Under the pieces are notes generated by a model. It searched no databases, was not told the DNA's origin, and worked only from the letters and a program-made list of their open reading frames with translations. Source: a virus. Taken from it: 32,000 bases of DNA. Each line of letters starts with the position of its first letter. The stretch's first letter is position 1. The stretch covers positions 2,590 through 34,589 of IMG/VR virus record IMGVR_UViG_3300037608_000250; one strand, given 5' to 3'. This document shows positions 3,390 through 28,026 of this stretch, piece by piece. A program made the position numbers and the translations under genes.

Positions 3390-3401
3390 GGGGGGGCAAT
3401 T

Positions 3402-9644: not shown

Positions 9645-9667
9645 GCTAACCGCCATTGGAGAAAGAA

Positions 9668-12113: not shown

Positions 12114-12131
12114 ATGGAGTAGGAGGGCATT

Positions 12132-13229
12132 GTGAACGGAAACATGATCTTAACCTGCGACGTGATGGATGGGCTTTCACAGTTGACGGCAAAATCCGTC
12201 CATTGTTGCGTTACCTCTCCTCCCTACTACGGTCTCCGGGACTATGGCGTTGACGGACAAATCGGACTGGAGGCGACGCTGCAAGAGTATATAAACAAGC
12301 TTGTCACGGTGTTTCGTGAAGTGAGGCGGGTGCTTCGAGACGAGGGAGTATTGTTTCTGAACCTCGGTGATTCGTATGCCGGTTCGGGAATGGGCGCCGC
12401 GAACTATCTTGACAGCGCGACTGATAAACAGAAATCAAACATCGGAAGCATGGCGGTAAAGGGACGCGGTGGCAATACATATGGGTTGAAGCCAAAGGAT
12501 TTAATGGGAATCCCGTGGCGTGTCGCTTTTGCATTGCAAGCCGATGGATGGTATTTACGACAGGATATCATTTGGCACAAACCTAATCCCATGCCCGAGA
12601 GTGTCCATGATCGCTGTACAAAGGCGCATGAGTATCTTTTTCTTTTGTCAAAAAATGCGAGGTACTACTTCGATGCGCAAGCTATTAAAGAGCATGCAGT
12701 CGGGTTTAACAACGATCCAATCGCGGGTAGTAAGGGAGCATTTGGACCACCTCAAAACAGACGGAGAATGCATGTCCCATCAGGCTGGGATATCGATAAG
12801 GGATCTCATGGAGCATTTCATAAAGAAGGTCGTCGAAAGGGCAATGCAAAAACGTTTCGCGGAGGCGGCGCGTACATTGTGAGACGGTCATTTGATAACG
12901 ATGGCGTAGTGGCGCGGGAGAGTCATGGCAATGAACGGAACGAAACAGGCTTGCGGAACAAGCGCAGTGTCTGGACCGTCGCTTCCCATCCATACGCAGA
13001 GGCGCACTTCGCAACCTTTCCAACAAAGCTGATCGAACCGTGCATCTTGGCTGGTAGTCCAAAGAGTGGCATAGTACTCGATCCCTTTTTTGGAAGCGGA
13101 ACGACCGGCGAGGTCGCAATAAAGTACGGACGCGAATGCATTGGCATTGAACTAAATCCGACGTATGTCGAACTGGCGCGAAAGAGAATATCTGCGGTTC
13201 AGATTTCGTTGATGCAAGGAGGCAATTGA
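12132..13229 (+). CDS. Orphan beta-class DNA methyltransferase (N6_N4_Mtase family; the SPPY motif suggests N4-cytosine or N6-adenine)
   Basis: Motif IV CVTSPPYYGLRDYG is N-terminal and motif I VLDPFFGSGTTGEVA is C-terminal. GGAGGG SD. No cognate nuclease lies adjacent. Confidence 0.85.
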   Translation: MNGNMILTCDVMDGLSQLTAKSVHCCVTSPPYYGLRDYGVDGQIGLEATLQEYINKLVTVFREVRRVLRDEGVLFLNLGDSYAGSGMGAANYLDSATDKQKSNIGSMAVKGRGGNTYGLKPKDLMGIPWRVAFALQADGWYLRQDIIWHKPNPMPESVHDRCTKAHEYLFLLSKNARYYFDAQAIKEHAVGFNNDPIAGSKGAFGPPQNRRRMHVPSGWDIDKGSHGAFHKEGRRKGNAKTFRGGGAYIVRRSFDNDGVVARESHGNERNETGLRNKRSVWTVASHPYAEAHFATFPTKLIEPCILAGSPKSGIVLDPFFGSGTTGEVAIKYGRECIGIELNPTYVELARKRISAVQISLMQGGN

Positions 13230-13490
13230 ATGAATCTCTACAAAGTTCAAAACGGGGATGAGGAATGTTGTGTATTCGTGTTCGCGAAATCGAGGGGCAG
13301 AGCGAAAGTGCTGTTTTCAGAGTATTTTGAGGGTTGGGGCTGGGGCGCTCACAAGAATGATCTCTTTCTGGCTGCAAGAACGAAGCTGATGAGCAAGGAC
13401 GTTGGAGGCAGCGAGGAAGTATGCGACGAAGACTGCAGAAGATTGGCTGCGCTGGGGATCTGCTTCCTGCCCGACATGGAGTGCGACTAG
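13230..13490 (+). CDS. Hypothetical protein (86 aa)
   Basis: Starts 1 nt after the methyltransferase stop. No family recognised. Confidence 0.45.
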   Translation: MNLYKVQNGDEECCVFVFAKSRGRAKVLFSEYFEGWGWGAHKNDLFLAARTKLMSKDVGGSEEVCDEDCRRLAALGICFLPDMECD

Positions 13491-13491
13491 C

Positions 13492-14541
13492 ATGAACAAA
13501 ACGAAAATCGATTGGGCAGATATGACATGGAATCCCGTAACCGGATGCCTGCACGGTTGCGAATACTGCTATGCACGGAGAATCGCTCAGAGGTTTGGCA
13601 ATAGCATCATTACGCCTGAAGAAGCAAAAAGCATGATGGAAATTGTCCTCGGTTATGAAGAAGGCGTCGAATTCGAGATAAGCAGAAGCGGTGTGGCTCT
13701 TAGTAAGCCTGTTCATTCGTTTGAAACAAAAGTGGCGTATCCCTTTGGGTTTGCGCCTACGTTTCATCGATACCGCCTGAAGGAACCGCAGCACATAAAA
13801 AAGCCGCAGAGGATCTTCGTTTGTTCAATGGCGGATCTGTTCGGCGACTGGGTTTCTGATCAATGGGTTCATGAGGTGTTTACCGCGTGCGAGAAGGCGC
13901 CATGGCACCAGTATCTGTTTTTAACAAAGAACGGAGAGAGATATGAGCAATTAGGGCTCCTTCCGGACAAAGACAATTTCTGGTATGGAACAACGCGCAC
14001 AGGCGCTTCATCGAGACTTGAGCACGGAGCATCAGACCATGGAAATACGTTCTTGTCGATTGAGCCTATTCTTGCGCCGCTGGATGAAGTAACTCTTGGA
14101 GCTATTGAGTTCTGGGACTGGGTCATCATTGGCGCGGAAACCGGCAGCCGCAAAGGCAAGGTGAATCCGAAGCGGGAGTGGGTCGAGCGCATTGCAAACA
14201 CCTGCCTTGCTGCGGAAGTACCGGTATTCATGAAATCAACGTTTCGGGAACTCATGGGCAAGGACTTCATTCAGCAGACACCGTGGGATAGGTTATCGAA
14301 AGAATCGGCGAGGGAGGAAAAAGGTAGAGCGTCATCAGTCCATGACCGCATAGCACCTGAATGCGCCGGCATCGTGAGCGTCGCGGTCAAGCGCGATATC
14401 CCCGGCAAGTTCCATATCCTGCAGCAGCTTGAACACGTAAAGGACATCCAGCCGGGAGTGCTTTGCGACATCGACGACATTGATGCCCGGCCGGTCCATG
14501 ACGATATTGTAGAGGCGAAGTTCGAAAGTGTTCATGGATGA
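13492..14541 (+). CDS. Phage Gp37/Gp68 family protein (DUF5131) with a CX3CX2C cluster and an unusually long C-terminal tail
   Basis: MNKTKIDWADMTWNPVTGCLHGCEYCYARR is the family's signature N-terminus. The domain appears to end near ...VPVFMKS...TPWD (~14290), yet the frame stays open to 14541. I prefer ATG 13492 over the ORF-track start at 13402. Confidence 0.7.
   Translation: MNKTKIDWADMTWNPVTGCLHGCEYCYARRIAQRFGNSIITPEEAKSMMEIVLGYEEGVEFEISRSGVALSKPVHSFETKVAYPFGFAPTFHRYRLKEPQHIKKPQRIFVCSMADLFGDWVSDQWVHEVFTACEKAPWHQYLFLTKNGERYEQLGLLPDKDNFWYGTTRTGASSRLEHGASDHGNTFLSIEPILAPLDEVTLGAIEFWDWVIIGAETGSRKGKVNPKREWVERIANTCLAAEVPVFMKSTFRELMGKDFIQQTPWDRLSKESAREEKGRASSVHDRIAPECAGIVSVAVKRDIPGKFHILQQLEHVKDIQPGVLCDIDDIDARPVHDDIVEAKFESVHG
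14335..14535 (-). CDS. Possible 66-aa winged-helix protein, antisense to the tail of the Gp37/Gp68 ORF
   Basis: MNTFELRLYNIVMDRPGINVVDVAKHSRLDVLYVFKLLQDMELAGDIAL reads like a wHTH, but no SD lies upstream. It is mutually exclusive with, or overlaps, the plus-strand reading. Confidence 0.3.
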   Translation of the reverse strand: MNTFELRLYNIVMDRPGINVVDVAKHSRLDVLYVFKLLQDMELAGDIALDRDAHDAGAFRCYAVMD

Positions 14542-14661
14542 AGTATAGCCAGATCAATGCATCAAAATCGGGTCAACAGTGAACAGGGAGGCAGAGGATT
14601 GATTTTGCAGGATATCAGAAACAAAAGGCTCAAGATAGAATACATAAAGTAACGCATCGCT

Positions 14662-14991
14662 TTGCTTCGTTCAGCCATGGAGGTCGGCGAGCGCAGGTTG
14701 AGGGTGGCACCATCAAAGACGGCAGCGAGAACTAAGCTCGAGGATGATATGGCCAAATTGGATGAATTGGAGAGAGCGCTAATCAGCGAGGTTATTTTAT
14801 ATGAAGACATGATTAGAGATGTTGATGACCATATTGGAGAGATGCCCAAACTCGCTAGCCAAATTCTTTCTCTCCGTGTGATTAAAGCATTAAACTGGGC
14901 AAAAATAGCAAAAGCAACGGACTATAGTGTAAGACAGTGCCAAAGAATATATTCGACATATTCAGAAAAAGTGTTTGTTAAAGGAGAATAA
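14662..14991 (+). CDS. Sigma-70 region-4-like phage transcription regulator (DUF1492-like); the ancestral ORF probably starts at TTG 14599
   Basis: C-terminus PKLASQILSLRVIKALNWAKIAKATDYSVRQCQRIY is a region-4-type HTH. An in-frame upstream segment with a GGGAGG SD (14585-14590) is separated from it only by TAA 14650-14652. Confidence 0.6.
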   Translation: MLRSAMEVGERRLRVAPSKTAARTKLEDDMAKLDELERALISEVILYEDMIRDVDDHIGEMPKLASQILSLRVIKALNWAKIAKATDYSVRQCQRIYSTYSEKVFVKGE

Positions 14992-15044
14992 CTATTGGGA
15001 TTCAAACGTTCCCAGGAAGATATCCCTTACATGATAAAAAATAC

Positions 15045-15081
15045 TTGAAAAAAATCTCCCTATAAATTATAATAAATTATA
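15045..15081 (+). promoter_or_regulatory. Consensus sigma-70/SigA promoter with an overlapping tandem repeat (possible operator)
   Basis: TTGAAA (15045-15050), a 17-nt spacer, then TATAAT (15068-15073). ATAAATTATA occurs twice in tandem (15062-15081). It lies about 45 nt upstream of the DUF4258 gene. Confidence 0.55.
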
Positions 15082-15117
15082 GTATTTTATAATATTTATA
15101 AAAAGGGGGAAGATAGC

Positions 15118-15435
15118 TTGTGCCAAATTGCCATAGAATGGATAAGAAAACAAGTTCAAAAATATGATTATATGCCCTCGCAACATGCTATTGGACGAAT
15201 GGGAGAAAGACAGATTACGTTTGAGCAGATAGAAGATTGCATACTCAATGGTGATGTCGTTGAATGTAATGACTTCCCCGATCAGGACGTTTGTATTGTC
15301 TTCAAACCAAGAGGACGAAATGATTACTATGTAGTTGTTGCGGCTACACTTCCCTGCACAATAGTTACAGTATGCAATCCGAGACCAGACTGCTGGATTC
15401 TTGAACATCAGACTATGATGAGGAGAAAAAAATGA
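15118..15435 (+). CDS. DUF4258-family protein (putative toxin component)
   Basis: AAAGGGGGA SD. MPSQHAIGRMGERQITFEQIEDCILNGDVVE fits the DUF4258 H-A..R..ER.I core. It overlaps the next gene by 4 nt. Confidence 0.7.
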   Translation: MCQIAIEWIRKQVQKYDYMPSQHAIGRMGERQITFEQIEDCILNGDVVECNDFPDQDVCIVFKPRGRNDYYVVVAATLPCTIVTVCNPRPDCWILEHQTMMRRKK

Positions 15436-15887
15436 ATAACATCAAATGCCATATCTGCAATACCGAAATGGAAGCAAAGGAGACTTCAATTTCTGCGGGT
15501 TGGGGGAAATACAAGGTAGATATAAGTGGCGTTACCGGATACGTATGTCCAAATTGCGGAGAGGTCATCTATTCTTCTGAGGAAGCTAAAATGATCCTAA
15601 AACTTGGTCAGGAAATGTCAGCTTTAAACAATCCGCCTGACTTATTAAATATTTCTGAAGTTGCGGATCTTTTACGGGTCAGTCAGCAAACAATTTACAA
15701 TAAAATTCGGGATGGAAGTCTAAAAGCAAGGAAGATAGGTCGTGAATGGCGATTCTTTAGAAAGGATATTCAAGCTTATCTTGATGAACCGAGCTTCGGC
15801 AATGCTCTGCTTGCAGCAAGAAACAGTGGGGATGCAATAACCCAAAAGGATCAAGAAGTCATCAAGCGCGAGATGGAGGATATGTAG
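15432..15887 (+). CDS. Zinc-ribbon (YgiT/MqsA-type) + HTH_17 DNA-binding protein (putative antitoxin/regulator)
   Basis: CHICNTEM...YVCPNCGEVIYSSEEA is a CxxC...CxxC ribbon. The C-terminus LLNISEVADLLRVSQQTIYNKIRDGSLKARKIGREWRF is an excisionase-type HTH. Confidence 0.75.
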   Translation: MNNIKCHICNTEMEAKETSISAGWGKYKVDISGVTGYVCPNCGEVIYSSEEAKMILKLGQEMSALNNPPDLLNISEVADLLRVSQQTIYNKIRDGSLKARKIGREWRFFRKDIQAYLDEPSFGNALLAARNSGDAITQKDQEVIKREMEDM

Positions 15888-16658
15888 ATGGTACGGCCGC
15901 TTCCGAAGAGTATTGCCCAGCATCTTGTTGAAGATGCTGGGCTCAATAATCCGGTAGACCTTTTCGCTTTCTGTGAATCCATCGAGATAAATACTGTTTT
16001 TTGTGATATTGATGCGGAAGCGCTTCTGGTATGTAAGGATGGGAAACGCAAAATCGTGTTAAAGAGAAATATTATTCCACCAAGAACGAGATTCTCGATT
16101 GCTCATGAATTGGGACATTTCTTTATTCCTTGGCATGTTCGCCTACTCTATCTCTGTAACGAAAAAGACATAATGCGCAACGGGGGCAAAATTGAAGAGA
16201 ACGAAGCGAATGCCTTTGCAGCAGAACTTCTAATGCCCGAAAGAATCTTAAAAGACAATAGGCTCACACAGTGTAATCTGGAAACGATCGGTTATTTATC
16301 GTCTATATGTAAAGTATCCATGACCGCAGCCGCAATTAGGTTAAATGATTGTGTTGATCAAGAAGTCGCGATCGTATTCTGTAAAGGCAAGGATGTACTG
16401 TGGACGAACGTTGGGAAGCTTTTTCCTGGACGGATAAGAAGAGAAAGGCCATATAGTGAAACAATAAAAGACTTGAAAACAGATTGCTTGCACTCACACT
16501 CACGCTCAAGAAAAATCCGTGGTCAATCCTGGCTTTTAAACTATCCGGACGCAACTCTAACTGAGCAAATGATTCTTATGCCCGGTTTTGATGGTATACT
16601 GACAATCCTACGATTCGAAGATGCTGATGATTTTGAAGAAAAAGATCTTGATTGGTAA
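15888..16658 (+). CDS. ImmA/IrrE-family zinc metallopeptidase (Peptidase_M78-like)
   Basis: HEXXH box FSIAHELGHFFIPWH, followed by EANAFAAELLMP, typical of ImmA/IrrE. The start abuts the upstream stop (TAGATG). Confidence 0.8.
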   Translation: MVRPLPKSIAQHLVEDAGLNNPVDLFAFCESIEINTVFCDIDAEALLVCKDGKRKIVLKRNIIPPRTRFSIAHELGHFFIPWHVRLLYLCNEKDIMRNGGKIEENEANAFAAELLMPERILKDNRLTQCNLETIGYLSSICKVSMTAAAIRLNDCVDQEVAIVFCKGKDVLWTNVGKLFPGRIRRERPYSETIKDLKTDCLHSHSRSRKIRGQSWLLNYPDATLTEQMILMPGFDGILTILRFEDADDFEEKDLDW

Positions 16659-16752
16659 TTGCTGTTGGGTTTCGCAAAACGTCGCAGAATGTCGCACCCA
16701 AAAGTAGTAATATGATACCATCGGACCAACTGGGACGATGATTTAGAATCAT

Positions 16753-16781
16753 AGAGACCGAGCAGAAAACGCTCGGTCTCT
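16753..16781. terminator. Perfect 11-bp hairpin between convergent genes (probable bidirectional terminator)
   Basis: AGAGACCGAGC-agaaaac-GCTCGGTCTCT. The T-tracts are weak on both sides. Confidence 0.6.
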
Positions 16782-16826
16782 TCATGTTTCTATAAATATA
16801 GTGATATGCCAATAAGAAAGATGTGT

Positions 16827-17057
16827 TCATTCGACTTGCTTTCCTTGATCGTCATGCCAGTACACCCTGAAGCAACCGCTTTGGAATACACTATTATCCG
16901 GATAGGCTTTTTCAAGTTTTTTGATTGCCTCAAAGTCACTGCAACGTTCCATTTGATGTGACTTAGTGCTGAAGCAATTATCCAATGGGCCAGAGTCAAA
17001 TTGCGCATTTACTGCGTCTATAAAGGCGGGGACATTGGATGCAAACACGTAAAGCAT
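16827..17057 (-). CDS. Hypothetical 76-aa protein
   Basis: Strong GAGGAGG SD 7 nt upstream of the ATG. Low GC. The palindrome TTGCTTtAAGCAA (17081-17093) lies upstream. No family recognised. Confidence 0.6.
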   Translation of the reverse strand: MLYVFASNVPAFIDAVNAQFDSGPLDNCFSTKSHQMERCSDFEAIKKLEKAYPDNSVFQSGCFRVYWHDDQGKQVE

Positions 17058-17203
17058 AGCATTAGCCTCCTCTCATAATTGCTTTAAGCAAATCTTATCA
17101 CAAGAGGGTAAAGGATTTCTCCCCACATTCGGATGATAATCAGAAGCTATAATGCAAATCTATTTCATTATTGACATAACAGTACACAATTAAGGAGACA
17201 GAA

Positions 17204-17728
17204 ATGAGCAGAGTTGATGAAATGAAGAGATATATTGATCAAGCTGTACAAACCGCCTTTGAGGCAGGGCGGCTATCATACGCCCAAACTCAAAAGGATG
17301 CATACAAGGCGACAGAGCGAAGACTCTACGCTATCCCAATTCTGAAAGCCAGGCTGATAGAAGAGCAAGACCACCTTGCCGAACTAATCTCTTCACAGGC
17401 ACCAGAGAAGATCAGTCGTAGTCTGGATGTTGTGCGCCTTCGGCGAGGGGGGAGAAGACTTTCGGATGAGGATCTCTTGAAAGCACAGATCCAATACTCC
17501 GAATCCATGATCGCGAGCATGGAACACGAAATCGGCGAGGTAGAAAATGGGCTGGAGCGGATTCGGCCGGATTTCTATTATCGTACAGTGCCGATGAAGT
17601 ATTTCGATGGTTTGACGGATGATATAGCTGCAGAAATTCTAAAGTGCGATCCCAGTACAATTCGGCGCAATAGATCAAGATTGGTAAAGTATATTGCTAT
17701 ATGGTTTTATGGGGTAACGGCTTTATGA
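17204..17728 (+). CDS. Putative phage late-gene regulator (sigma-70 region-4-like HTH; ArpU/RinA-like)
   Basis: AAGGAGA SD. C-terminus YYRTVPMKYFDGLTDDIAAEILKCDPSTIRRNRSRLVKYI is a region-4-type HTH. Its position ahead of the packaging genes fits this role. Confidence 0.55.
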   Translation: MSRVDEMKRYIDQAVQTAFEAGRLSYAQTQKDAYKATERRLYAIPILKARLIEEQDHLAELISSQAPEKISRSLDVVRLRRGGRRLSDEDLLKAQIQYSESMIASMEHEIGEVENGLERIRPDFYYRTVPMKYFDGLTDDIAAEILKCDPSTIRRNRSRLVKYIAIWFYGVTAL

Positions 17729-17781
17729 TTGAATTTGGTTTTTGAAAGGATCTAGTATCGATATGCACCATAAAAAAAATA

Positions 17782-17790
17782 TGCTATTAT
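17782..17790 (+). promoter_or_regulatory. Extended -10-like element TGCTATTAT upstream of the four-gene island
   Basis: TGnTATTAT at 17782-17790 with no good -35. An alternative is TTGACT (17812-17817) with a weak -10. Low-confidence call. Confidence 0.25.
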
Positions 17791-17868
17791 GTTCTCGTTA
17801 GGATGATTATCTTGACTGTGTGGTCAGATTTCTCTGATTTATTTCAATTAAAATAGGAGGCAATTCAT

Positions 17869-18261
17869 ATGGGATCAACAGGTACGGGGAGATTTGGAAA
17901 TTATAGAATTGGATTAGCTTCAGGAGATGGTAAAAATTCAAAGGAAGATTCTATGAGTACTAAAGAGTTTATTTGTCCTGACAATATTGAGTTCATTCAA
18001 ATCGAGGATGTGGCGATTTCCGAATATTTTACAAAGCATAACAGCCTACCGGCGCAACACACTTCAGTAAGATTGAAAAGAGCTCTTGAATTCGGCAGAC
18101 TTGTTATCGAAACATCAGAAAGCTCAGAAACAATTGGTAATTTGCCAACGCAGTATAATTATCTCCTTGAGTGTATCTATAGAGGGAAGACATATTCGGG
18201 TCAGGTTTTAGCATCTGGAGTTGATCCCATCCCATATGTGGTGGTGAATTTGAGTGCATAA
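17869..18261 (+). CDS. Hypothetical 130-aa protein with a Gly-rich N-terminal tail; first gene of the island operon
   Basis: AGGAGG SD 8 nt upstream. MGSTGTGRFGNYRIGLASGDGKNSKE is followed by a compact domain. No family recognised. Confidence 0.65.
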   Translation: MGSTGTGRFGNYRIGLASGDGKNSKEDSMSTKEFICPDNIEFIQIEDVAISEYFTKHNSLPAQHTSVRLKRALEFGRLVIETSESSETIGNLPTQYNYLLECIYRGKTYSGQVLASGVDPIPYVVVNLSA

Positions 18262-19576
18262 TCGACGGATCCTAGTTGTTGGCGAAGTTTTTGTTGATCT
18301 CCATCTCGATTTGTTAAGTGGACATAGTCCACTGGCAAGACTGGGTGGTATTTTTCATACCGCAAGAGCCTTGTCGACTTATAAACTTGAATTCGCGCTG
18401 GCCCACATTTCACCCGATTACCTTGACGAAGACATTAATCTTTACAGTTGTAAGCTAAATAGCATTGGATGCTATAGAATCGGAATAATTAGAAAAGCCA
18501 CAAACATACTACTTGTTTCTGATTCAAAGGAGGTTGGCTTTCAAGGGTACTATAATGTTCTTAAGGATCAAGCAGAGTATATAAACGACATGGATTTCCG
18601 ACAAGTTCTTTGTCGAGTCAAACCCACTGACGTTATTCTTTTTCCTGGACGGTACGACACAATTAGGGTGCTGAATGAATTAAAAAATTTTGATGCCAGT
18701 TTGCATATTGACTGCCACTATGATAGTGATAATCTTTTAACAGAGTTTAACGGAAATATCTCTACTTTATTTCTGTCAACATCAGCAGATATTTTCCGTA
18801 ATACATGCAACGGAAATCTCGAAAAAATACTGGATTTCTATTCTCGAAATAACATAGAAAGAATAGTTGTAAAAGAGAGTCGAGGGGGATCATTCTGTTA
18901 TGATTATGCAACAAAAGACATCCATGAAGCACCCGCTTTTCACGTCCACACAATGCACTCTGTTGGAGTTGGAGATGTATTTGATGCTTGTTTCGTTGGA
19001 TATTTAGACAATTATGACATTCAGAACAGAATGAAGCTTGCATCTTATTGTGCTGCCCAATATGCTGCGACATTATCATTCGAATGCTTTCAGGAATCTG
19101 TGCAATCAATTTGTGGACATGAAAAAGAGATCTTATCTCTTCAAGGTATCAGACTATCGTGGGATGATAGGGGCAAAAAAAATATCTATATTGCCGCGCC
19201 AGATTTTCCGGATGTTGATACAAGTTTATTGGACAAACTAGTCGAATGCTTAGAGTATCATAACTTCAGACCCCGACTTCCAATAAGAGAAAATGGCTTG
19301 GCAGATAAATCAATCAGCATTGAAGATGAATTTAAACTCTATAAAAAAGATATCGCTTTGCTTCAAGAATGTGATCTTCTAATAGCCGTTTTGCTTTTTA
19401 ATGATCCTGGAACACTAGTTGAACTAGGGATGTTTAAACAAATGGGTAAACCAACAATAGTATTTGATCCATTTGGGATCTGCACCAATATGTTTGTTAA
19501 ACATACACCTGACTATTTGTGTGTATCGATTGAAGATGTGCTCGTTTCCTCATATATCTCTCTTCAAAGGAGATAA
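18254..19576 (+). CDS. Fusion protein: PfkB-family kinase domain + nucleoside 2-deoxyribosyltransferase/DNPH1-like domain
   Basis: N-terminal half: RILVVGEVFVD, LARLGGIFHTARAL and SVGVGDVFDACFVGY (PfkB GAGD box). C-terminal half (~19166-19573): KNIYIAAPDF and CDLLIAVLLFNDPGTLVELGMFKQMGKPTIVF (the NDT-type DxGTxxExG box). The GTG start overlaps the upstream ORF by 8 nt. Confidence 0.85.
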   Translation: MHNRRILVVGEVFVDLHLDLLSGHSPLARLGGIFHTARALSTYKLEFALAHISPDYLDEDINLYSCKLNSIGCYRIGIIRKATNILLVSDSKEVGFQGYYNVLKDQAEYINDMDFRQVLCRVKPTDVILFPGRYDTIRVLNELKNFDASLHIDCHYDSDNLLTEFNGNISTLFLSTSADIFRNTCNGNLEKILDFYSRNNIERIVVKESRGGSFCYDYATKDIHEAPAFHVHTMHSVGVGDVFDACFVGYLDNYDIQNRMKLASYCAAQYAATLSFECFQESVQSICGHEKEILSLQGIRLSWDDRGKKNIYIAAPDFPDVDTSLLDKLVECLEYHNFRPRLPIRENGLADKSISIEDEFKLYKKDIALLQECDLLIAVLLFNDPGTLVELGMFKQMGKPTIVFDPFGICTNMFVKHTPDYLCVSIEDVLVSSYISLQRR

Positions 19577-19583
19577 CTAATTA

Positions 19584-20219
19584 ATGGATAATTACGATGG
19601 CCTCTTATTAGCTTCTGGTGGCATGGATTCAACCGTTTTGTCTTATGATTTAAACGAGAAGGGGGAGAATATCCTACTATTATTCCTTGATTATGGTCAA
19701 CACTGCATGAAACAAGAGTATGATACATTACTTCAAGTTGTACCGGAAACCTATAGAGAACATATAAAGGTTTTGAATATTAGTGATATATATTTTGGGT
19801 CAAACTCCAGAATGATAAAAGAAGCTGATCTATGGAAGGAACAAGTTGTAGCAGATGACTTATACTTACCGTATCGGAATTTGCTCTTTATCTCCATTGC
19901 ATCTGCCTTTGCACAATCGAAAGGCATAAAGAAAGTATACTCTGCCTTTATAAACAGTAACCATGCGAAAGAAATTGATTGTTCAATGCAGTTTTTTACT
20001 GAGCTGGAAATGATATTAAGAAGTTATGGGTCGATTAAGCTTTGTATGCCCTATCGCGAAATGTCAAAAACTCAAGTTGCTAAACTTGGCTTAAAACTAG
20101 GTGCCCCGATTTGTTTGACATATTCGTGTCAAGTTAACTCACATAGACCATGCGGAGCATGCCCAAATTGTGTTGATAGAATCGAAGCCTTGAATAATGT
20201 AGTTCTTGGTAGAGAGTAA
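19584..20219 (+). CDS. QueC-like PP-loop ATP-pyrophosphatase family protein
   Basis: LLASGGMDSTVLSYDL (SGGxDS), LFLDYGQH, YLPYRNLLFISIA, and C-terminal SCQVNSHRPCGACPNCVDR (a C-x7-C-x2-C-x2-C zinc site). AAGGAG SD. Confidence 0.85.
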   Translation: MDNYDGLLLASGGMDSTVLSYDLNEKGENILLLFLDYGQHCMKQEYDTLLQVVPETYREHIKVLNISDIYFGSNSRMIKEADLWKEQVVADDLYLPYRNLLFISIASAFAQSKGIKKVYSAFINSNHAKEIDCSMQFFTELEMILRSYGSIKLCMPYREMSKTQVAKLGLKLGAPICLTYSCQVNSHRPCGACPNCVDRIEALNNVVLGRE

Positions 20220-20869
20220 TGGATAATACTTGTTTAAATAAATATGTTATTCTATTAAGTGACTTTATATTAAGTATTGAGACTGATTTTATTCCGTTTG
20301 ATGATCAATCTCCGTATTATCATATGGGAGCAACTCTTACTGATTCCATTTTGCAAGCAGGCATCAATTATAAACATGTTGTTTTGCCACGAGTTAATAA
20401 GTTGCTTACTCAATACTCAAGTTTTAATACAACATGTGATTTTATTATACTCATGGATATGATACCACTTGAAGAGCTGATTAATTGGAAGAATAAAGAG
20501 AAGCTTGTTCGAATCGAAGAATTGACATGGTTAATGTATAGAAATGGTATTAACAATGAGAATGAGCTTGCTGAATGGTTGTCCATATCAGATAATTTGG
20601 AGGAATTAATCAGAATAAAAGGTGTCGGGCCTAAAACTGTTGACTATATATGTATGCTGGCAGGCATACAGTCTTTTGCCATAGATAGACATCTATATAG
20701 CTTTCTTGAAATGTCAGGAATTTATATAAAGACGTATCAGGAAGCCATCAGAATATATACTGCAACATCTGAATACTTAAACATTAACAAGTACCAGCTT
20801 GACAAAAATATTTGGACATATATGTCAACAAAAAATCCGCAAGTAGCAAATAACATCGATAGTTTTTAA
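20219..20869 (+). CDS. HhH-GPD superfamily DNA glycosylase-like protein (EndoIII/OGG-like, no Fe-S Cys cluster)
   Basis: LTDSILQAGINY... then LIRIKGVGPKTVDYICMLAGIQSFAIDRHLYSF. The hairpin-helix GVGxKT retains the Lys and the downstream Asp is retained. The ATG overlaps the upstream TAA (TAATG). Confidence 0.75.
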   Translation: MDNTCLNKYVILLSDFILSIETDFIPFDDQSPYYHMGATLTDSILQAGINYKHVVLPRVNKLLTQYSSFNTTCDFIILMDMIPLEELINWKNKEKLVRIEELTWLMYRNGINNENELAEWLSISDNLEELIRIKGVGPKTVDYICMLAGIQSFAIDRHLYSFLEMSGIYIKTYQEAIRIYTATSEYLNINKYQLDKNIWTYMSTKNPQVANNIDSF

Positions 20870-20938
20870 ATGCGGGTCCTTCCAAGGGTGGAGGGGCATG
20901 CGGGGCTGGCGACTCCCGGAATATCTCTCGCTCTGATA

Positions 20939-20968
20939 AAAAAAGCGGAAGCACTTCCTTCCGCTTTT
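20939..20968 (+). terminator. Rho-independent terminator closing the island operon (A-run/T-run flanks, so possibly bidirectional)
   Basis: AAAAAA-GCGGAAG-cacttc-CTTCCGC-TTTT. Confidence 0.7.
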
Positions 20969-21239
20969 ACTACGCGCAAACTCCCTGCTATAGGCAAATT
21001 CAGAATTGAAAAGCGGAAATGACTAAGCAAACTCTCATACAATTTGGGATGATCTATCTCACAGATCAGCCGGCGCAGATATCCCAAAGTAGAAATCGTT
21101 CTCTGCGTGTATCAGTTGGCCATAGTTCTTTGTTTCTGGTATTTCGTTCTATACTGTGCTAGAATTGGGCAATTGAGCAAAACGGTAGTCTTTATTTAAA
21201 AAACAAAGCCAAGATCATAGATATTATGCTTAAAAGTTA

Positions 21240-21268
21240 TTGCGCATTAGTGCAAATTGGAATATAAT
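21240..21268 (+). promoter_or_regulatory. Sigma-70-type promoter with an overlapping imperfect palindrome (TA operator candidate)
   Basis: TTGCGC (21240-21245), a 17-nt spacer, then TATAAT (21263-21268). TTGCGCattaGTGCAA spans the -35. It lies 28 nt upstream of the toxin ATG. Confidence 0.55.
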
Positions 21269-21295
21269 ATAGACGATTCGGAGGGGTAATTCGGG

Positions 21296-21667
21296 ATGTT
21301 TCGCATAAACTTTTATGCAGATGCGAATGGAAGGCAGCCTGTAAAAGAATATCTGGATGATTTACGAAGCTCTTCCGAGACGAACAAAGATGACAGAATC
21401 AGATTGAAAAAGATAACTGAGTACATGGATGTACTCGCCGCAAACGGAACCAGAGCTGGAAAACCCTATGTTGAGCATATTGACGGGGATATCTGGGAAC
21501 TGCGTCCGCTTAGCACAAGGATCTTCTTCTTTTGCTGGTTAGGCGATAAGTTCATAATGCTGCATCATTTCGAAAAGAAGACAAGAAAAACACCTGAGCG
21601 AGAGAAAGAAAAGGCAAAACGCGAAATGAAGGACTTCATCCAAAGGAGTGAGAAACGTGAGAAATAA
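21296..21667 (+). CDS. Phage Gp49-like (DUF891) RelE/HigB-family toxin
   Basis: GRQPVKEYLDDL...GKPYVEHIDGDIWELRP...RIFFFCWLGDKFIMLHHFEKKTRKTPEREKEKA is the classic Gp49-family pattern. GGAGGGG SD. Confidence 0.85.
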   Translation: MFRINFYADANGRQPVKEYLDDLRSSSETNKDDRIRLKKITEYMDVLAANGTRAGKPYVEHIDGDIWELRPLSTRIFFFCWLGDKFIMLHHFEKKTRKTPEREKEKAKREMKDFIQRSEKREK

Positions 21668-21956
21668 AGTCGTGTCCCCTATTGGAGACGATTGGAGCGA
21701 ATACAGAGAGACTCTCTTGACACCTGAGGAGCGGGCAGAAATTGATGTCAAGGTCGCTATTATAAGCATGCTCATCCAAGCACGACAAGATAAGGGCATT
21801 ACCCAAAAACAACTGGAGCAGATTAGCGGCGTCAAGCAACCTGTGATTGCCCGACTTGAAAAAGGCAAAACAGACCCGCAACTCTCGACACTGATCAAAG
21901 TATTGGCTCCTTTGGGCAAAACGGTAGCCATTGTGCCACTTCCGGTAGAGCATTAA
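21657..21956 (+). CDS. XRE-family HTH antitoxin (HigA-like)
   Basis: ARQDKGITQKQLEQISGVKQPVIARLEKGKTDPQLSTLIKVLAPLG. I prefer GTG 21657 (GGAG SD 9 nt upstream). It overlaps the toxin's 3' end. Confidence 0.8.
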   Translation: MRNKVVSPIGDDWSEYRETLLTPEERAEIDVKVAIISMLIQARQDKGITQKQLEQISGVKQPVIARLEKGKTDPQLSTLIKVLAPLGKTVAIVPLPVEH

Positions 21957-22084: not shown

Positions 22085-22612
22085 ATGATCGAATGCAATC
22101 AGAAAGAATTGTCGAGGATCCTTGGCCTTTCGGACCGGCGGGTACGCCAGATGGCGGAGGACGGTCTTTTCGAGCGCGATCCGGTGACGAAGAAATACAA
22201 CCTGCCGAAATGCGTACAGGAATTCATCCGATACAAAGTGGAGCTGGAATCGACGGCGCCAATCGCTGTGAACTTCGAAACTGAACGGGCTGAGCACGAG
22301 CGGGTAAAGAAGGATATCGCCAAGCTCAAGCTCCGGCGATACCGCGGCGAGCTCCATGAAGCTTCTGAGATCGAGGCTGAGCTCAGCGACATGCTGATCC
22401 GGTTCCGTGGCAAGATTTTGGCCATTCCAACCAAGCTCGCTCCGCAGCTGCTGGGAATGACTGATCCGAACACTATTGTCCGGATACTGAAGAACGAACT
22501 TCGGGAAACCTTGACGGAACTCTCCGGATATAATCCGGTCGTCAAAGAGCCCCTCAGGGAAGAGATTGATGATGAAGGAGAAGACAGCGAATCTGATTCG
22601 GCGGATCTGTAG
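22085..22612 (+). CDS. Terminase small subunit (Nu1-like, N-terminal HTH)
   Basis: CNQKELSRILGLSDRRVRQMAEDGLF...KYNLPKCVQEFIRYK resembles the Nu1 N-terminal wHTH. Acidic C-terminus. Lies directly upstream of a GpA-type TerL. Confidence 0.7.
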   Translation: MIECNQKELSRILGLSDRRVRQMAEDGLFERDPVTKKYNLPKCVQEFIRYKVELESTAPIAVNFETERAEHERVKKDIAKLKLRRYRGELHEASEIEAELSDMLIRFRGKILAIPTKLAPQLLGMTDPNTIVRILKNELRETLTELSGYNPVVKEPLREEIDDEGEDSESDSADL

Positions 22613-24371
22613 GGACTGCCTGATCCCGCCTCCGGAGCTGACGGTTTCGAAGTGGGCGGAGAAGTACAGAATCCTCGACAACGCAAGCGCATACCCGGGA
22701 CGATGGAGCAACAGCGTGACGCCGTACCTTACCGGCATCATGGACGAATACTGCAACCCGTATACACGGGAGATCATCTTCTGCAAACCGACTCAGGTCG
22801 GCGGTACCGAGGCCATGCTCAATATGCTCGGATACTCGATCATGATGGACACCGCGCCCACCATGGTGGTCGAGCCTACCGACGCGCTCGCGATTTCTGT
22901 TGCGGAACACCGGTTCCAAACGATGGTCGAGAAATGCCCAGAGCTGAGGGCCTTAAAGAATGTCCGCAGGTCGCGGCGGCTCGAACAGCGGTTCTCCGGA
23001 ATGACTCTGTATTTTAACGGTGCGAACAGCCCGAGCAAACTGGCATCCAGAGCAATTAAAAACTTGTTCCTGGATGAATCGGATAAGTTCCCGGGCGCGT
23101 CCAGAAAAGAAGCGTCGCCTTACAAACTGGCGAGGGAGAGGACGAAGACATATCCTCTCAACAGAAAGATCTTCGACAACTGCACCCCGACACTGAAAAC
23201 GGGACATATATGGGACGCGAAAGAAAATGCCGACGTAGAGCGGCATTTTTTTGTGCCTTGTCCGCACTGTAAAGAAATGATCGAGCTCTTCTTCAAGCAG
23301 ATCATCTTCCCTGCCGGCGAGGGTTTGACCAACGCCGAACGCGCTGAGCAGGCACTTTACTTTTGCCAGAGCTGCGGAACCGCGATCGAGGACGCACACA
23401 AGCCGGGGATGCTCCGTTTGGGTGAATGGAGAGAGATCAGGCGCCGGATTGGAGGCAGGCTCCAGCCGAAAACGGTCGCGTTCTGGATGAACACGCTGTA
23501 TTCGCCGTTCGTGACCTGGACGGATATTGCAAGAGAGTTTCTCGATTCGAAAGACGATCCCGAAACGCTTCAGAACTTCGTCAATGCCTGGCTTGCCGAA
23601 CCCTGGGAGAATACCAAGTCCAGCACCGACGCCGATCTGGTCATGGAGAGGCAAACGGAGTACCCCGAGAATGAGGTGCCGGACTGGGCTGAGATCCTTG
23701 TCGGAGCTGCCGACGTTCAGGAAACGTCTATCTTCTGGACAATCAGGGCATGGGGCAAGCATATGACCAGCCAGAATATTGCGCACGGGCAGGCGCTGGG
23801 ACTCCACGATCTCGATGAGATTATGAACCTGTTCTACAAGAAGCGCGACGGTACCCAGATGCAGGTTGCGCTGTGCGCAATCGACTCAGGCGATCAGACC
23901 GGCGAGGTATACGAATTCTGTGCAGCGAGGGCCGAGTGGGCGATCCCGGTCAAGGGGTCGGCGAGGGCACTTCTGGGCAACTACACGATTTCAACGATTG
24001 ACAAACCGGACAGCAAAGCGCACGGCCAGCGGCTTGTGCTTATCGACACGGCAAAATACAAGAGCGCCATCGCATGGCGCCTGCGCAAGGACCCGGGACA
24101 AGGATCATGGATGGTTTTCAAGGGCTGCGATCAGGCATACGCCGAGCAGGTCACTGCGGAGCAGCTCGTTACCGGCAAGACCGGCGATACATGGGTACCG
24201 AAAACAACGCATGCAGCTAACCACTATCTCGACGCGGAAGTATATAACTTCGTGGCGGCAGACTTGTGCGGCGTGCGTTACCTCTATCTGCGGGATGCGC
24301 CTGTGGTTAAAGCGGAGCGCAACGATGAGATTCCGCAGCAGGACTGGATTCCAAACAAAAGCGACTGGTAG
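22566..24371 (+). CDS. Terminase large subunit, lambda GpA family
   Basis: 601 aa. The N-terminus LIRRICRDCLIPPPELTVSKWAEKYRIL aligns by eye with the lambda gpA N-terminus. Walker-like CKPTQVGGTEAML. The start overlaps the terS 3' end by 47 nt. Confidence 0.9.
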   Translation: MMMKEKTANLIRRICRDCLIPPPELTVSKWAEKYRILDNASAYPGRWSNSVTPYLTGIMDEYCNPYTREIIFCKPTQVGGTEAMLNMLGYSIMMDTAPTMVVEPTDALAISVAEHRFQTMVEKCPELRALKNVRRSRRLEQRFSGMTLYFNGANSPSKLASRAIKNLFLDESDKFPGASRKEASPYKLARERTKTYPLNRKIFDNCTPTLKTGHIWDAKENADVERHFFVPCPHCKEMIELFFKQIIFPAGEGLTNAERAEQALYFCQSCGTAIEDAHKPGMLRLGEWREIRRRIGGRLQPKTVAFWMNTLYSPFVTWTDIAREFLDSKDDPETLQNFVNAWLAEPWENTKSSTDADLVMERQTEYPENEVPDWAEILVGAADVQETSIFWTIRAWGKHMTSQNIAHGQALGLHDLDEIMNLFYKKRDGTQMQVALCAIDSGDQTGEVYEFCAARAEWAIPVKGSARALLGNYTISTIDKPDSKAHGQRLVLIDTAKYKSAIAWRLRKDPGQGSWMVFKGCDQAYAEQVTAEQLVTGKTGDTWVPKTTHAANHYLDAEVYNFVAADLCGVRYLYLRDAPVVKAERNDEIPQQDWIPNKSDW

Positions 24372-24383
24372 GAGTGAAGAACA

Positions 24384-24605
24384 ATGCCCGAACTGACACC
24401 GGCGCAGATGCTTGCCGAGGTGAACATCGCAATCCAGAAGATCCTCGTTGGGGGACAATCGTACCGCATCGGGTCCCGGCAGCTCAACCGTGCCGATCTT
24501 GGCATGCTTCGGCAGATGCAGCGTGAACTGGAAAACCAGGTTGTCGGCGGCGACAACGCAAACACGCTTGGTAACTTCTCAGTCGCCGAGTTCGACCGGA
24601 GGTGA
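24384..24605 (+). CDS. gpW-like head-tail joining protein
   Basis: 73 aa. AEVNIAIQKILVGGQSYRIGSRQLNRADLGMLRQMQRELE fits the gpW pattern. Its position between TerL and the portal matches lambda. Confidence 0.7.
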   Translation: MPELTPAQMLAEVNIAIQKILVGGQSYRIGSRQLNRADLGMLRQMQRELENQVVGGDNANTLGNFSVAEFDRR

Positions 24606-24611
24606 GGTTGC

Positions 24612-26105
24612 TTGAAATGGTTTGAGGACCTCATCCTCCAAATATCGCCTGAAGCGGCGTACCGAAGAGAAGCCTGGCGCAAGGGACTGGGCCTGTTACG
24701 CAACTACGACGCGGCAAAAACTGACCGTCTCAACGCCTGGCATGCCCGCAACGATTCAGCAGAATTCACTGACGCGCCTTCCCGCGATACGATTCGGGCG
24801 AGAGCAAGGGATCTGGAACGAAACAGCGACGTCGCACTCGGAATCCTGGCAGCGTTCGAACGCAACATCATCGGCGCCGGTCTCCAACTTCAGGCGAAAA
24901 CGGAAGATGAAGGCGTAAACACATCGATCGAGGATCTTTGGAAGGAATGGAGCAAGGCGCGCAATTGCGACGTCACCGGTCAGCAGAATCTAAGCGATAT
25001 TCTTCGCATGGCGGAGCGCCGCAAGCGGGTCGATGGCGGGGTGCTGATTCTTAAGCGGTACACGGACCAGGGAATCCTGCCGTTCCAATTGCAGATGATC
25101 GAGGTCGATGAGCTCGACAACATCGTCGTCACCCCAAAGGTGAGAACCAACAAGGTCCGCGGCGGTATTGAGTACAACGAATGGAACAAGCCGGTAGGCT
25201 ACTACATCCGCCAGTACGGCATCGACGGCTTCTCGATGATGCCGCCGGTATACGTCGAGGCCAAGGATGTCATTTTCTACTGGACCAAACGACGGCCGAG
25301 CCAAATCAGGGAGATCTCGGACATGTCAGCCACGGTGACCAGGGTTCGCGACATGAACCAGTTCATGGAAGCAGTCGGAGTCAAAGAACGTATTGCGGCG
25401 TGCTTTGCGCTTATGATCCGTAAGCAGGTGCCCACAGGCGGATCACTCGGCAGATCAAGCTCGCCGGTCACGGCCGACAACGGCAATGCCGGCTATCCGC
25501 CAAAAAAGATAACGCCGGGCATGATCGCAGAACTGCAACCGGGGGACGCGGTCGACACGATCTCGCCGCCGAACAGCGGCACGTCTGCTGCGGACTTCCT
25601 TCGAACACAGCAACGACTTGCGGCCGCGGGGCAAGGCCTGTCCTACGAAACTGTCAGCCGGGACATGAGCCAGGTCAACTACTCGAGTGCACGGCAGGGC
25701 TTGATCGAAGATGAAAGAACTTATGCAATCGAACGCGGCAACCTGATCGAGTCCGTCCTCGACGAAATCTATGAGACGTTCGTTATATCCCTCGTTCTTG
25801 CCGGCAAGCTGGAGATCCCGAAATTCTGGAACAACAAGCGCGCCTGGTTCAACCATGTCTGGGTCGCGCCGGCGAGGCGCTGGATCGATCCGCAGAAGGA
25901 AGCGAACGCGAACCAGATTGCATTGAAGACCGGGCAGCGGACAATCCAACAGATCGCAGCCGAGAACGGATACGACTGGCGCGAACAAATCGACGAAATG
26001 GCTGCTGCCGTCGCTTATGCGAGAACACAAGGCATTGATTTGGGAGGTGTACTGTATGGCAATCCGGAATACGCCCAGGCCGGGGCCACAATCTATCCGG
26101 ACTGA
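24612..26105 (+). CDS. Portal protein, lambda family
   Basis: 497 aa. ARARDLERNSDVALGILAAFERNIIGAGLQLQ is typical of lambda-type portals. GGAGGTGAGG SD, TTG start. Confidence 0.85.
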   Translation: MKWFEDLILQISPEAAYRREAWRKGLGLLRNYDAAKTDRLNAWHARNDSAEFTDAPSRDTIRARARDLERNSDVALGILAAFERNIIGAGLQLQAKTEDEGVNTSIEDLWKEWSKARNCDVTGQQNLSDILRMAERRKRVDGGVLILKRYTDQGILPFQLQMIEVDELDNIVVTPKVRTNKVRGGIEYNEWNKPVGYYIRQYGIDGFSMMPPVYVEAKDVIFYWTKRRPSQIREISDMSATVTRVRDMNQFMEAVGVKERIAACFALMIRKQVPTGGSLGRSSSPVTADNGNAGYPPKKITPGMIAELQPGDAVDTISPPNSGTSAADFLRTQQRLAAAGQGLSYETVSRDMSQVNYSSARQGLIEDERTYAIERGNLIESVLDEIYETFVISLVLAGKLEIPKFWNNKRAWFNHVWVAPARRWIDPQKEANANQIALKTGQRTIQQIAAENGYDWREQIDEMAAAVAYARTQGIDLGGVLYGNPEYAQAGATIYPD

Positions 26106-26118
26106 CAAAGGCGTAAAG

Positions 26119-28008: not shown

Positions 28009-28026
28009 TAAGGAGGAAATAAGATC

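Follow-up and report, generated by a model that had tools for sequence, protein, structure and literature searches.

We examined a 32,000-nucleotide stretch of viral DNA (hereafter the window), which spans positions 2,590 to 34,589 of IMG/VR record IMGVR_UViG_3300037608_000250 and was read on one strand, and focused on a cassette of four genes at positions 17869 to 20869. Pfam and PHROGs scans of the open reading frames (ORFs) in the window place this cassette in a prophage. All four genes are on the plus strand. ORF1 (17869-18261) encodes a protein of 130 amino acids that is the putative tagging substrate discussed below. ORF2 (18254-19576; 440 amino acids) starts at a GTG and overlaps ORF1 by 8 nucleotides, ORF3 (19584-20219; 211 amino acids) follows after a 7-nucleotide gap, and ORF4 (20219-20869; 216 amino acids) overlaps the end of ORF3 in a TAATG with a shared A. 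These four ORFs and their coupled junctions, which can be read directly in the sequence, are exactly those given in an initial annotation of this DNA. Also read from the plus strand were a Shine-Dalgarno sequence, AGGAGG (17855-17860), 8 nucleotides ahead of the ORF1 ATG at 17869, and a ribosome-binding site for ORF3, AAGGAG (19567-19572), within the 3' end of ORF2. Seventy nucleotides past the ORF4 stop codon, on the same strand, lies a hairpin (AAAAAGCGGAAG / CTTCCGCTTTT; 20939-20968) that is a possible intrinsic terminator. The initial annotation had described a hairpin followed by a T-run at this position; the hairpin is indeed stable (RNA fold, -16.1 kcal/mol, z = -3.97), but no more than TTTT follows it, and it went uncalled in the terminator scan. 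The extended -10-like promoter proposed upstream of the genes did not hold up, since sigma-70-like promoters were found at or below the level expected by chance (13 found versus 15.2 expected) and none was located upstream of ORF1.

The cassette is a real, widespread, and unnamed four-gene system. A pattern scan for the ORF2 family detected it in 56 of 185,579 species-level genomes, with hosts among the Bacillota, many Bacteroidota, Alpha- and Gammaproteobacteria, TM6, Melioribacteraceae, Balneolaceae, Peloplasma, and Anaerolineales. The genes in these 56 genomes are arranged in the order ORF1, ORF2, ORF3, ORF4 in the same orientation and usually overlap or lie a few bases apart. ORF1 was present in 53 of the 56, ORF3 in 55, and, after tblastn, ORF4 in 53; ORF4 was truly absent only from locus L047, and its other misses were due to contig ends or fragments. 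The cassette was also present in 10 IMG/VR viral contigs and on plasmids of Neotabrizicola and Proteus, and in metagenomes it was conserved in 80 loci (of 409 found) wherever the contig was long enough. At all genome and metagenome loci examined, the QueC-like gene (ORF3) was next to the fusion gene (ORF2). Because the same gene order recurs across genomes, viral contigs, plasmids, and metagenomes, a chance juxtaposition of the four genes, the outcome that would have undone the initial annotation, is refuted. A variant occurs on Bacillus cereus plasmid pC1L1 (NZ_CP022446.1; locus L063, 6634-8956), where the counterparts of ORF2 and ORF3 form one PfkB-NDT-QueC polypeptide of 658 amino acids (NDT, nucleoside 2-deoxyribosyltransferase) annotated as "7-cyano-7-deazaguanine synthase." This gene is preceded by one for a small protein, MGSTGTGQFGDY, and by a NUDIX gene, and the locus carries no OGG-like gene.

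The families to which these proteins belong have recently been linked to a form of protein modification. Protein deazaguanylation was discovered in 2025 in type IV cyclic-oligonucleotide-based antiphage signaling systems (CBASS), in which the QueC-family enzyme Cap9 attaches 7-amido-7-deazaguanine (NDG) to G2 of the CD-NTase tail MGGSGGSFGSGF (Wassarman et al. 2025); in 2026, it was extended to the QatABCD system. The TGT-fold protein Cap10 binds the tagged tail, which sits in its base pocket and keeps the partner inactive, and was proposed to transfer the tail to a target, while the OGG-like protein Cap11, which is found in about one-third of type IV CBASS, was proposed to act as a reverser. 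The authors of the Cap9 work pointed out that, because N9 of the tethered base is free, it could permit "subsequent addition of ribose." For QatABCD, the MGTS N-terminus of QatB, which enters QatC, is essential, and defence is abolished by a G2D mutation.

ORF3 is, by sequence, a Cap9-like, minimal QueC-family PP-loop ATP pyrophosphatase. It matched the Pfam QueC model over its full length (1.6e-33), and of the PADLOC models it matched CBASS "QueC" (Cap9) at 1.2e-25 and QatC at 1e-3 over residues 3-66 only. When the ORF3 family profile was compared to the PDB, the best match was Cap9 (9nto_B, 1.2e-16), followed by QueC (2pg3, 2.7e-15). The protein carries the motifs SGGMDS, YGQHC, and PYRN, a family-specific loop, NSNHAKEIDC, and the zinc motif TYSC-Q-x6-CxxCxxC-V-D. 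SGGxDS and the four Cys residues are invariant in the family alignment, as is C-Q-x6-C-G-A-C-P-N-C-V-D. Cap9 binds the base with D117 and R86, and ORF3 retains the corresponding residues, D132 and R98. ORF3 shares with canonical QueC the PP-loop SGGxDS, the PxRN and D-C motifs, the four-Cys zinc site, and the full-length Pfam match, but it differs in having EIDC for YPDC, YGQHC for YxQxH, and a zinc-site spacing of C(x)7C versus C(x)8C, and it is not linked to queD, queE, or queF. It also scored under the TIGR00364 (92.9 bits, cut-off 150.3) and PRK11106 QueC equivalog cut-offs, and its score for NF008317 (26.6, cut-off 378) was low. Assignment as a canonical QueC, that is, a preQ0 synthase, was rejected given these scores and the lack of the YPDC and C(x)8C motifs. 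One further difference lies at the active site, where the base-stacking Tyr of QueC and Cap9 (in YPDC) is replaced by an invariant Glu (E-I-D-C).

ORF1 is the predicted tagging substrate and, in our comparison with Cap9 and QatC, would be the most telling part of the cassette. Neither the single sequence nor the family gave any match in Pfam, PADLOC, NCBIfam, or PDB sequence searches. The N-terminus of the window protein is M-G-S-T-G-T-G-R-F-G-N-Y, and the motif M-G-S-[STA]-G-[STN]-G-x-[FL]-x-[DNT]-Y is found in every genome-derived homologue, with M1, G2, S3, G5, G7, and Y12 invariant in an alignment of 42 such sequences. In over-long gene calls the motif lies further in, and the internal Met with which it opens is evidently where the protein really starts. 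The motif is followed by a Gly/Ser-rich linker of variable length and then by a conserved domain. An exhaustive profile search yielded 291 clusters at 50% identity, all of them small stand-alone proteins, and the profile begins at residue 1 in most. The N-termini of the best 150 of these 291 cluster representatives were tallied: 111 start with MGS, approximately 17 (~11%) with MGT, 3 with VGS (GTG starts), and approximately 14 (~9%) with M-E-S/T. Gly2 is therefore present in ~131 (~87%) of these representatives, and G5, G7, F9, and Y12 are strongly conserved. By sequence, the ORF1 N-terminus matches the N-terminal-glycine signature of the Cap9 and QatC substrates. In an AlphaFold2 (AF2) model, residues ~1-30 are predicted to be disordered (predicted local distance difference test [pLDDT] scores of <50 at residues 1-3 and 10-30) and residues ~36-130 to form a compact, confident, beta-rich domain (pLDDT >90). 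The top Foldseek matches of this domain were lp_0118 and the HIRAN domains of HLTF and Rad5, with E values of 4e-3 to 6e-2 (3k2y, 4e-3; HLTF HIRAN, 9e-3 to 4e-2); viral HIRAN-domain proteins matched at 7e-4 to 3e-3, and TM-scores, these viral matches included, ranged from 0.44 to 0.69. A QatB-like fold for ORF1 was rejected, as no QatB was among the Foldseek matches, and a literature search returned no paper connecting QatB with HIRAN.

The minority of ORF1 proteins that start with M-E-S/T provided a comparison with which to examine the relationship between the ORF1 N-terminus and the active site of ORF3. Of seven loci with such proteins that were looked at, three had complete cassettes (L079, 5001-7998; L161, 1636-4665; L163, 1046-4093), one was partial, and three were on contigs that were too short. 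Wherever ORF1 was of the MG[ST] type, in 34 genome-derived sequences and 80 of 80 metagenome loci, the ORF3 loop was NSNHA-x-E-[ILV]-DC, with x usually Lys; the two MGT-type loci among these 80 kept it as well. SCQ and YGQHC were invariant in the 34 genome-derived proteins, the set in which they were checked. Conversely, the loop was changed in all three ME-type cassettes (QSDLATG-DA, ETHRAPGNDC, and DSNVALGADC; A[TPL]G(-/N/A)D[AC]), SCQ had become SCL in all three, and YGQHC had become YGQHS in two of the three. Where Gly2 of ORF1 is replaced by Glu, Glu130 of ORF3 is replaced by Gly, and this is the site of the base-stacking Tyr of QueC and Cap9, beside the base-binding Asp. Covariation of this kind is what direct recognition of the ORF1 N-terminus within the ORF3 active site would predict. 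A metagenome scan with an ME-type ORF2 as single query found no relatives, a second metagenome scan returned MG-type loci only, and the ME-type ORF1 alignment was too variable for use as a search query.

Taken together, the above-described features lead us to infer, by analogy but fairly strongly, that ORF3 would ligate a base of the 7-carboxy-7-deazaguanine (CDG) type to the N-terminus of ORF1. We consider the chances to be about even that the cassette is a mobile, prophage-borne system for tagging a protein N-terminus with a nucleobase, of the "deazaguanylation" type, and most likely serves in anti-phage defence. Under such a scheme, ORF1 would be made with a flexible Gly/Ser-rich tail, and removal of Met1 would expose Gly2. 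ORF3 would then adenylate the carboxylate of CDG, or a close analogue, supplied by the host, and attack by the N-terminal amine of ORF1 would leave the base amide-linked to ORF1 with its N9 still free.

ORF2 is a fusion of a ribokinase/PfkB-fold kinase domain (residues ~1-300) and an NDT domain (residues ~310-434). The NDT domain matched Pfam PF05014 at 4.6e-14 (53 bits versus a cut-off of 28.8), and the ORF2 family profile matched the NDT structure 6evs at 2e-11, with the CMP N-glycosidase 4jen also among its PDB matches. It contains the NDT box D384-x-G-T-x-x-E390, and D366, D384, G386, T387, E390, and N412 are invariant in family alignments; by sequence, the C-terminal third of ORF2 is an NDT domain with a predicted catalytic Glu nucleophile. 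NDT enzymes move a deoxyribosyl group to N9 of purine-type bases via a Glu-linked intermediate. The window protein gave no match to Pfam PF00294 (PfkB), and its NCBIfam matches were weak. Its kinase boxes are a GG box and a GVGD anion hole with D241, of which G31, G32, G238, G240, and D241 are invariant. An AF2 model of ORF2 (pLDDT 93.3, predicted TM-score 0.91) placed the kinase domain, by Foldseek, with dozens of ribokinase-family kinases at E values of ~1e-13 and TM-scores of 0.6 to 0.69, which suggests a ribokinase fold that, with its intact GxGD/Asp241, looks active. There are 786 homologues of ORF2, and nearly all of the 120 that were listed are ~440 amino acids long.

If the cassette tags ORF1, the PfkB-NDT fusion would stand in the place of Cap10, and its NDT domain would handle the tethered base at N9. 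The simplest such act would be transfer of a (deoxy)ribosyl group through the covalent mechanism of the conserved Glu390, after which the kinase domain would phosphorylate the sugar, so that a nucleoside or nucleotide is built on the protein terminus. The NDT and kinase domains would thus be an enzyme pair suited to the "subsequent addition of ribose" named by the Cap9 authors.

The same domains can be read in two other ways. The initial annotation had proposed a route to a small molecule, in which a free 7-deazapurine base, produced or activated by the QueC-like enzyme, receives deoxyribose from the NDT domain and phosphate from the PfkB domain, to yield an antiviral nucleotide analogue or a DNA-modification precursor, while ORF4 acts on DNA. 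ORF1 would on this reading be accessory or regulatory. The domain logic of this pathway is chemically coherent, ORF3 keeps the ATP-binding, zinc, and Asp/Arg base-binding residues of QueC, the catalytic residues of the NDT and kinase domains are conserved, and metabolic channelling is another setting in which enzyme fusions like that of B. cereus are typical. However, the free-nucleotide logic is poorly supported because it gives ORF1 no more than a side role: it accounts neither for the near-obligate presence and translational coupling of this protein, with its N-terminal Gly motif and disordered tail, nor for the covariation of its N-terminus with the ORF3 active-site loop. ORF3 also scores under both QueC equivalog cut-offs and has no Tyr at YPDC, and the window contains no DpdA or TGT for base insertion and no QueD, QueE, or FolE. 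We regard this pathway as rather improbable. The other reading, which we find doubtful, keeps the tagging core but makes the PfkB-NDT protein the effector, an N-glycosidase that destroys (deoxy)nucleotides or nucleosides under the control of the tagged ORF1 tail, with ORF4 removing the tag. The result would be abortive infection or nucleotide depletion, and the tagged tail would either hold the NDT domain inactive or switch it on, comparable to the clamping of the tagged CD-NTase by Cap10, in whose base pocket the tagged tail of type IV CBASS sits and keeps the partner inactive. The NDT superfamily includes hydrolases, as the 4jen match illustrates, Glu390 and the Asp residues are invariant, the cassette is otherwise without an effector, and the PfkB-NDT-QueC polypeptide of B. 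cereus indicates tight physical coupling. The best sequence matches, on the other hand, are true transferases (6evs) rather than hydrolases, and an active-looking kinase domain has no clear role in pure depletion.

ORF4 is, by family profile, an Ogg2/Cap11-like protein of the helix-hairpin-helix (HhH) DNA glycosylase/AP-lyase type. On its own, the window protein gave sub-threshold, weak matches to HhH (5.6e-3) and PRK01229 (0.027), and there was no match to Pfam HhH-GPD itself. The best PDB matches of the family profile were the Ogg2-type 8-oxoG glycosylase/AP lyases 9o00 (3.2e-7), 3fhf (1.3e-6), 3fhg, and 3knt, which together span 3.2e-7 to 1.2e-5, with MagIII and EndoIII ranking next. In addition, 20 of 39 family members matched the PADLOC CBASS "OGG" (Cap11) model, the best at 4.1e-8. 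The ORF4 core, a GVGPKT hairpin with K139 followed by D156-R-H, aligns with the GxGxK...DRH of Ogg2 structures, and G135, G137, K139, D156, R157, and H158 are invariant. Of the domain assignments made in the initial annotation, QueC, NDT, and HhH glycosylase were thus upheld; PfkB and HhH-GPD fell below Pfam thresholds for the window proteins themselves and were confirmed by family profile or fold. Its quoted motifs are all present, and the catalytic residues that it named (D241, E390, K139, D156, and SGGxDS) are invariant in family alignments. The domain assignments and the recurrence of the cassette in 56 genomes also bear out its description of a real, co-conserved, nucleobase-centred gene set. 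On Selenomonas noxia-type contigs (L001-L003, ~7973-8578), the OGG-like gene was called as 127 to 157 amino acids, and tblastn aligned residues 3-202 without a break; the gene may be a pseudogene, or its start may be miscalled. The cassette on these contigs is beside a transposase gene (rve) within a polysaccharide-biosynthesis region.

For the last steps of the tagging scheme, the HIRAN-like domain of ORF1 would direct the conjugate to DNA 3' ends, and ORF4 would excise or reset the base-linked adduct. The roles of ORF2, ORF4, and the HIRAN-like domain in these third to fifth steps, like the defence phenotype, we only infer. The most explicit form of the scheme is that a nucleotide is built stepwise on Gly2 of ORF1 (base, N9 deoxyribosylation, and phosphate) and then serves either to join the HIRAN-like protein covalently to phage DNA 3' ends or to insert it there, with the OGG-like enzyme excising the adduct. 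We consider this form unlikely. If true, such a protein-anchored nucleotide at DNA 3' ends would provide the "next step" that is missing from deazaguanylation immunity and would make up a new class of conjugation between protein and nucleic acid.

We compared the cassette to the known QueC-containing systems and to its nearest published relatives. PADLOC assigned it to no named system, and, as the initial annotation had stated, CD-NTase, TGT/DpdA, QatA, TatD, and QueD/QueE were not found in Pfam and PHROGs scans of the window ORFs. It resembles type IV CBASS in its minimal QueC-family enzyme, of which Cap9 is the best solved relative and has the same zinc-motif spacing; in its OGG-like fourth gene, which is homologous to Cap11 at the family level; in a partner protein with a flexible Met-Gly-(Gly/Ser)-(Ser/Thr)-Gly... 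N-terminal tail; and in having a base-exchanging or glycosyl-transferring enzyme as third component. It differs in that the cassette has no CD-NTase and no cyclic-nucleotide effector, and a CD-NTase was found neither among the window ORFs (Pfam, PHROGs) nor, across 41 genomes, in the leading families of the 144 genes that flank the cassette. No TGT domain occurs in the window or the cassette, where Cap10 is replaced by the unrelated PfkB-NDT fusion, a protein of (deoxy)nucleoside-acting families. The putative tagged protein is the 130-amino-acid, HIRAN-like ORF1 instead of a CD-NTase, and the base-stacking Tyr of Cap9 is Glu in ORF3. Membership in type IV CBASS was rejected because CD-NTase, TGT, and effector are all absent. 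With QatABCD the cassette shares a QueC-family enzyme, a small partner with a disordered Met-Gly-Thr/Ser N-terminus (MGT itself in ~11% of ORF1 relatives), and the form of a four-gene operon on mobile elements. Unlike QatC (~400-450 amino acids), ORF3 is 211 amino acids long and lacks N- and C-terminal extensions, and the QatC models matched it at 1e-3 to 2e-4, far below cut-off (NF041925, 20.2 bits versus 280); unlike QatB, ORF1 had no PADLOC match, and its fold differs from anything QatB-like among the PDB matches. Membership in QatABCD was rejected because QatA and QatD are absent (the window yielded neither a KAP/QatA ATPase nor a TatD nuclease), the extensions of QatC are missing from ORF3, and QatB and ORF1 are unrelated. 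The description that best fits the cassette is that of a third architecture among QueC-family systems for N-terminal tagging.

A literature search turned up a single earlier mention, a survey of PF06508 in which 89% of the "Cluster 4" QueC paralogues have a PfkB-NDT fusion as neighbour; purine salvage was guessed to be their role, and neither the small protein nor any logic of a fourth gene was noticed (Libby, Hutinet, de Crecy-Lagard et al. 2026). A paper on TIR systems has deazaguanylation in its reference list only. The "undescribed" of the initial annotation therefore holds for the system, which is unnamed, but not for the QueC/PfkB-NDT adjacency of its sister lineage, which was published in 2026. 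That Cluster 4 is such a sister lineage is indicated by the sequence of a four-gene cassette on Pseudomonas aeruginosa plasmid pPUV-6 (NZ_MT732184.1; locus L065, 3144-5953), which encodes a small protein (MSGSGGSYLGPD...), a distant PfkB-NDT fusion, a QueC-like protein with CHKSHLACGNCRGCNK, and a nitroreductase. As in our cassette, the QueC paralogue is directly downstream of the PfkB-Nuc_deoxyrib_tr fusion, and the small upstream protein of pPUV-6 has a Gly/Ser-rich N-terminus, MSGSGGSY. The pPUV-6 QueC-like protein carries the Cluster 4 signature CH(x)5CxxCxGCxK together with the nitroreductase gene, versus C-Q-x6-CxxCxxC-V-D and an OGG-like gene in the family of the window cassette, and the fusion proteins of the two are only ~24-27% identical. 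Membership in Cluster 4 was rejected, as ORF3 lacks that signature. Pfam-based neighbourhood surveys could not see ORF1 or ORF4 because neither has a Pfam model.

The salvage proposal of Libby et al. (2026) for the sister lineage can be carried over to the window cassette, which would then be a housekeeping purine or nucleoside salvage operon that is on a prophage by chance. NDT enzymes and PfkB kinases are classical salvage enzymes, and some loci do lie among ordinary metabolic genes. Nonetheless, we think this highly improbable: the pattern search detected the cassette in 56 of 185,579 species genomes, a very patchy distribution, it resides on prophages, plasmids, and viral contigs with a G+C content that is low relative to the host element, it has defence genes as neighbours, and salvage has no use for an OGG-like DNA glycosylase or a HIRAN-like protein.

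The genomic context makes a defence role plausible, as the initial annotation had suggested, although the evidence is qualitative. The window cassette sits in an accessory slot of the prophage, next to the Gp49/HTH pair, and the window also contains a type III restriction-modification (R-M) system. At an alphaproteobacterial locus, it lies between PRTase-CE, AbiH, and zeta-toxin genes, and the sister cassette on pPUV-6 adjoins Dam and TIR genes. The 144 flanking genes included AriA/AbiEii-like ATPases (7), dGTPase (4), AbiLi (3), and HEC-01A (3), along with type I and IV restriction enzymes, a KAP NTPase, NUDIX genes, integrases, and HTH regulators. NUDIX genes, one of which precedes the B. 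cereus fusion, recur beside the cassette (3 of the 144).

Several points weigh against an N-terminal tagging system that serves in defence. Gly2 of ORF1 is not universal, and the ~9% of representatives that start with M-E-S/T are a challenge to tagging at Gly2 because Glu2 prevents Met removal; the acceptor may not be strictly a glycine amine, and the true site could be another conserved residue, Ser/Thr3 or Tyr12. The ME-type cassettes may all belong to a single clade, and the covariation with ORF3 may hence be a single evolutionary event. Since Glu replaces the base-stacking Tyr in ORF3, its carboxylate substrate may not be CDG. In PADLOC, PDB, and Foldseek comparisons, ORF1 resembled neither QatB nor CD-NTases in sequence or in fold, and its HIRAN-like assignment comes from modest Foldseek scores (E ~1e-3 to 1e-2) with no sequence-level match. 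A free-nucleoside pathway would make equal use of a PfkB-NDT pair, the cassette holds no obvious toxic effector, and the ORF2 fusion gene had no homologue in the isolate-phage collection. The defence neighbours, lacking a genome-wide background, are qualitative evidence, and the flanks look like housekeeping genes at some loci (L079 and the Selenomonas polysaccharide genes). Genes for EF-Tu/EF-G-type GTPases are among the commonest neighbours (5 of 144, in the flanks of L007-L047), which may reflect insertion of mobile islands near translation-factor or tRNA loci, or these genes may be paralogous, defence-associated GTPases.

If the tagging scheme is right, the cassette retains from the known systems the tagging enzyme, the logic of a Gly-tail substrate, and the OGG-like gene, but has a deoxyribosyl transferase and a ribokinase-fold kinase in place of the TGT-like partner and a small HIRAN-like domain in place of the large CD-NTase. 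These partner enzymes have a well-understood chemistry, which would make the chemistry downstream of the tag predictable: mass spectrometry would be expected to find the base, base plus sugar, and base plus sugar plus phosphate on one short peptide, and could show what the tags are for. Pfam-based neighbourhood surveys would then have missed half of the system, and the "purine salvage" guess would be corrected. A compact (3 kb), phylogenetically widespread candidate would also be added to the defence cargo borne by phages and plasmids.

The surroundings of the cassette agree with the prophage slot described in the initial annotation, with a regulator upstream and a Gp49/HTH_3 pair followed by packaging and head genes downstream. 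Upstream are an HTH_17 excisionase-like gene, a gene for an IrrE/ImmA-type peptidase, and a phrog_36 regulator; downstream are the Gp49-like/HTH_3 pair, TerS, TerL, portal, a protease-capsid fusion, and a cement protein. The nearest relatives of TerL, at 52-55% identity, are in Faecalibacterium phage FP_Epona and gut phages. The G+C content of the cassette is low, as had been claimed, at 0.361 (0.315 for ORF4 alone), compared to 0.577 for the packaging and head genes (22085-32000) and 0.526 for the prophage block at 8001-14500. The accompanying claim that both flanks are GC-rich was incorrect, since positions 14501-17868 have a G+C content of 0.409, the low-GC stretch already starting near 14500, and positions 20870-21956 have 0.43-0.45. 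The excisionase-like HTH_17 gene and the following IrrE/ImmA-type Peptidase_M78 gene, which encodes a HELGHF motif (15432-16658), share this low-GC stretch (~41%) with the cassette, and the acquired or accessory block may therefore be larger than the four genes. Between the cassette and TerS, a Gp49-like ORF (PF05973, HigB/RelE-type) overlaps an HTH_3/XRE ORF to form a toxin-antitoxin-like pair (21296-21956).

Elsewhere in the window, the GC-rich early region of the prophage encodes a DNA methylase (N6_N4_Mtase; 12132-13229), the second in the window, and a DUF5131 protein (phrog_2045; 13402-14541). The left end carries the type III R-M system (1329-6365), the G+C content of which, 35-47%, is below that of the GC-rich prophage blocks 8001-14500 and 22085-32000. 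It comprises a Mod methylase (N6_N4_Mtase; 1329-2795), a separate ORF of 182 amino acids with an EcoP15I Mod C-terminal domain (2841-3389), and Res, with ResIII and endonuclease domains (3402-6365). The placement of the EcoP15I Mod C-terminal domain in its own ORF suggests that the mod gene is split or frameshifted.

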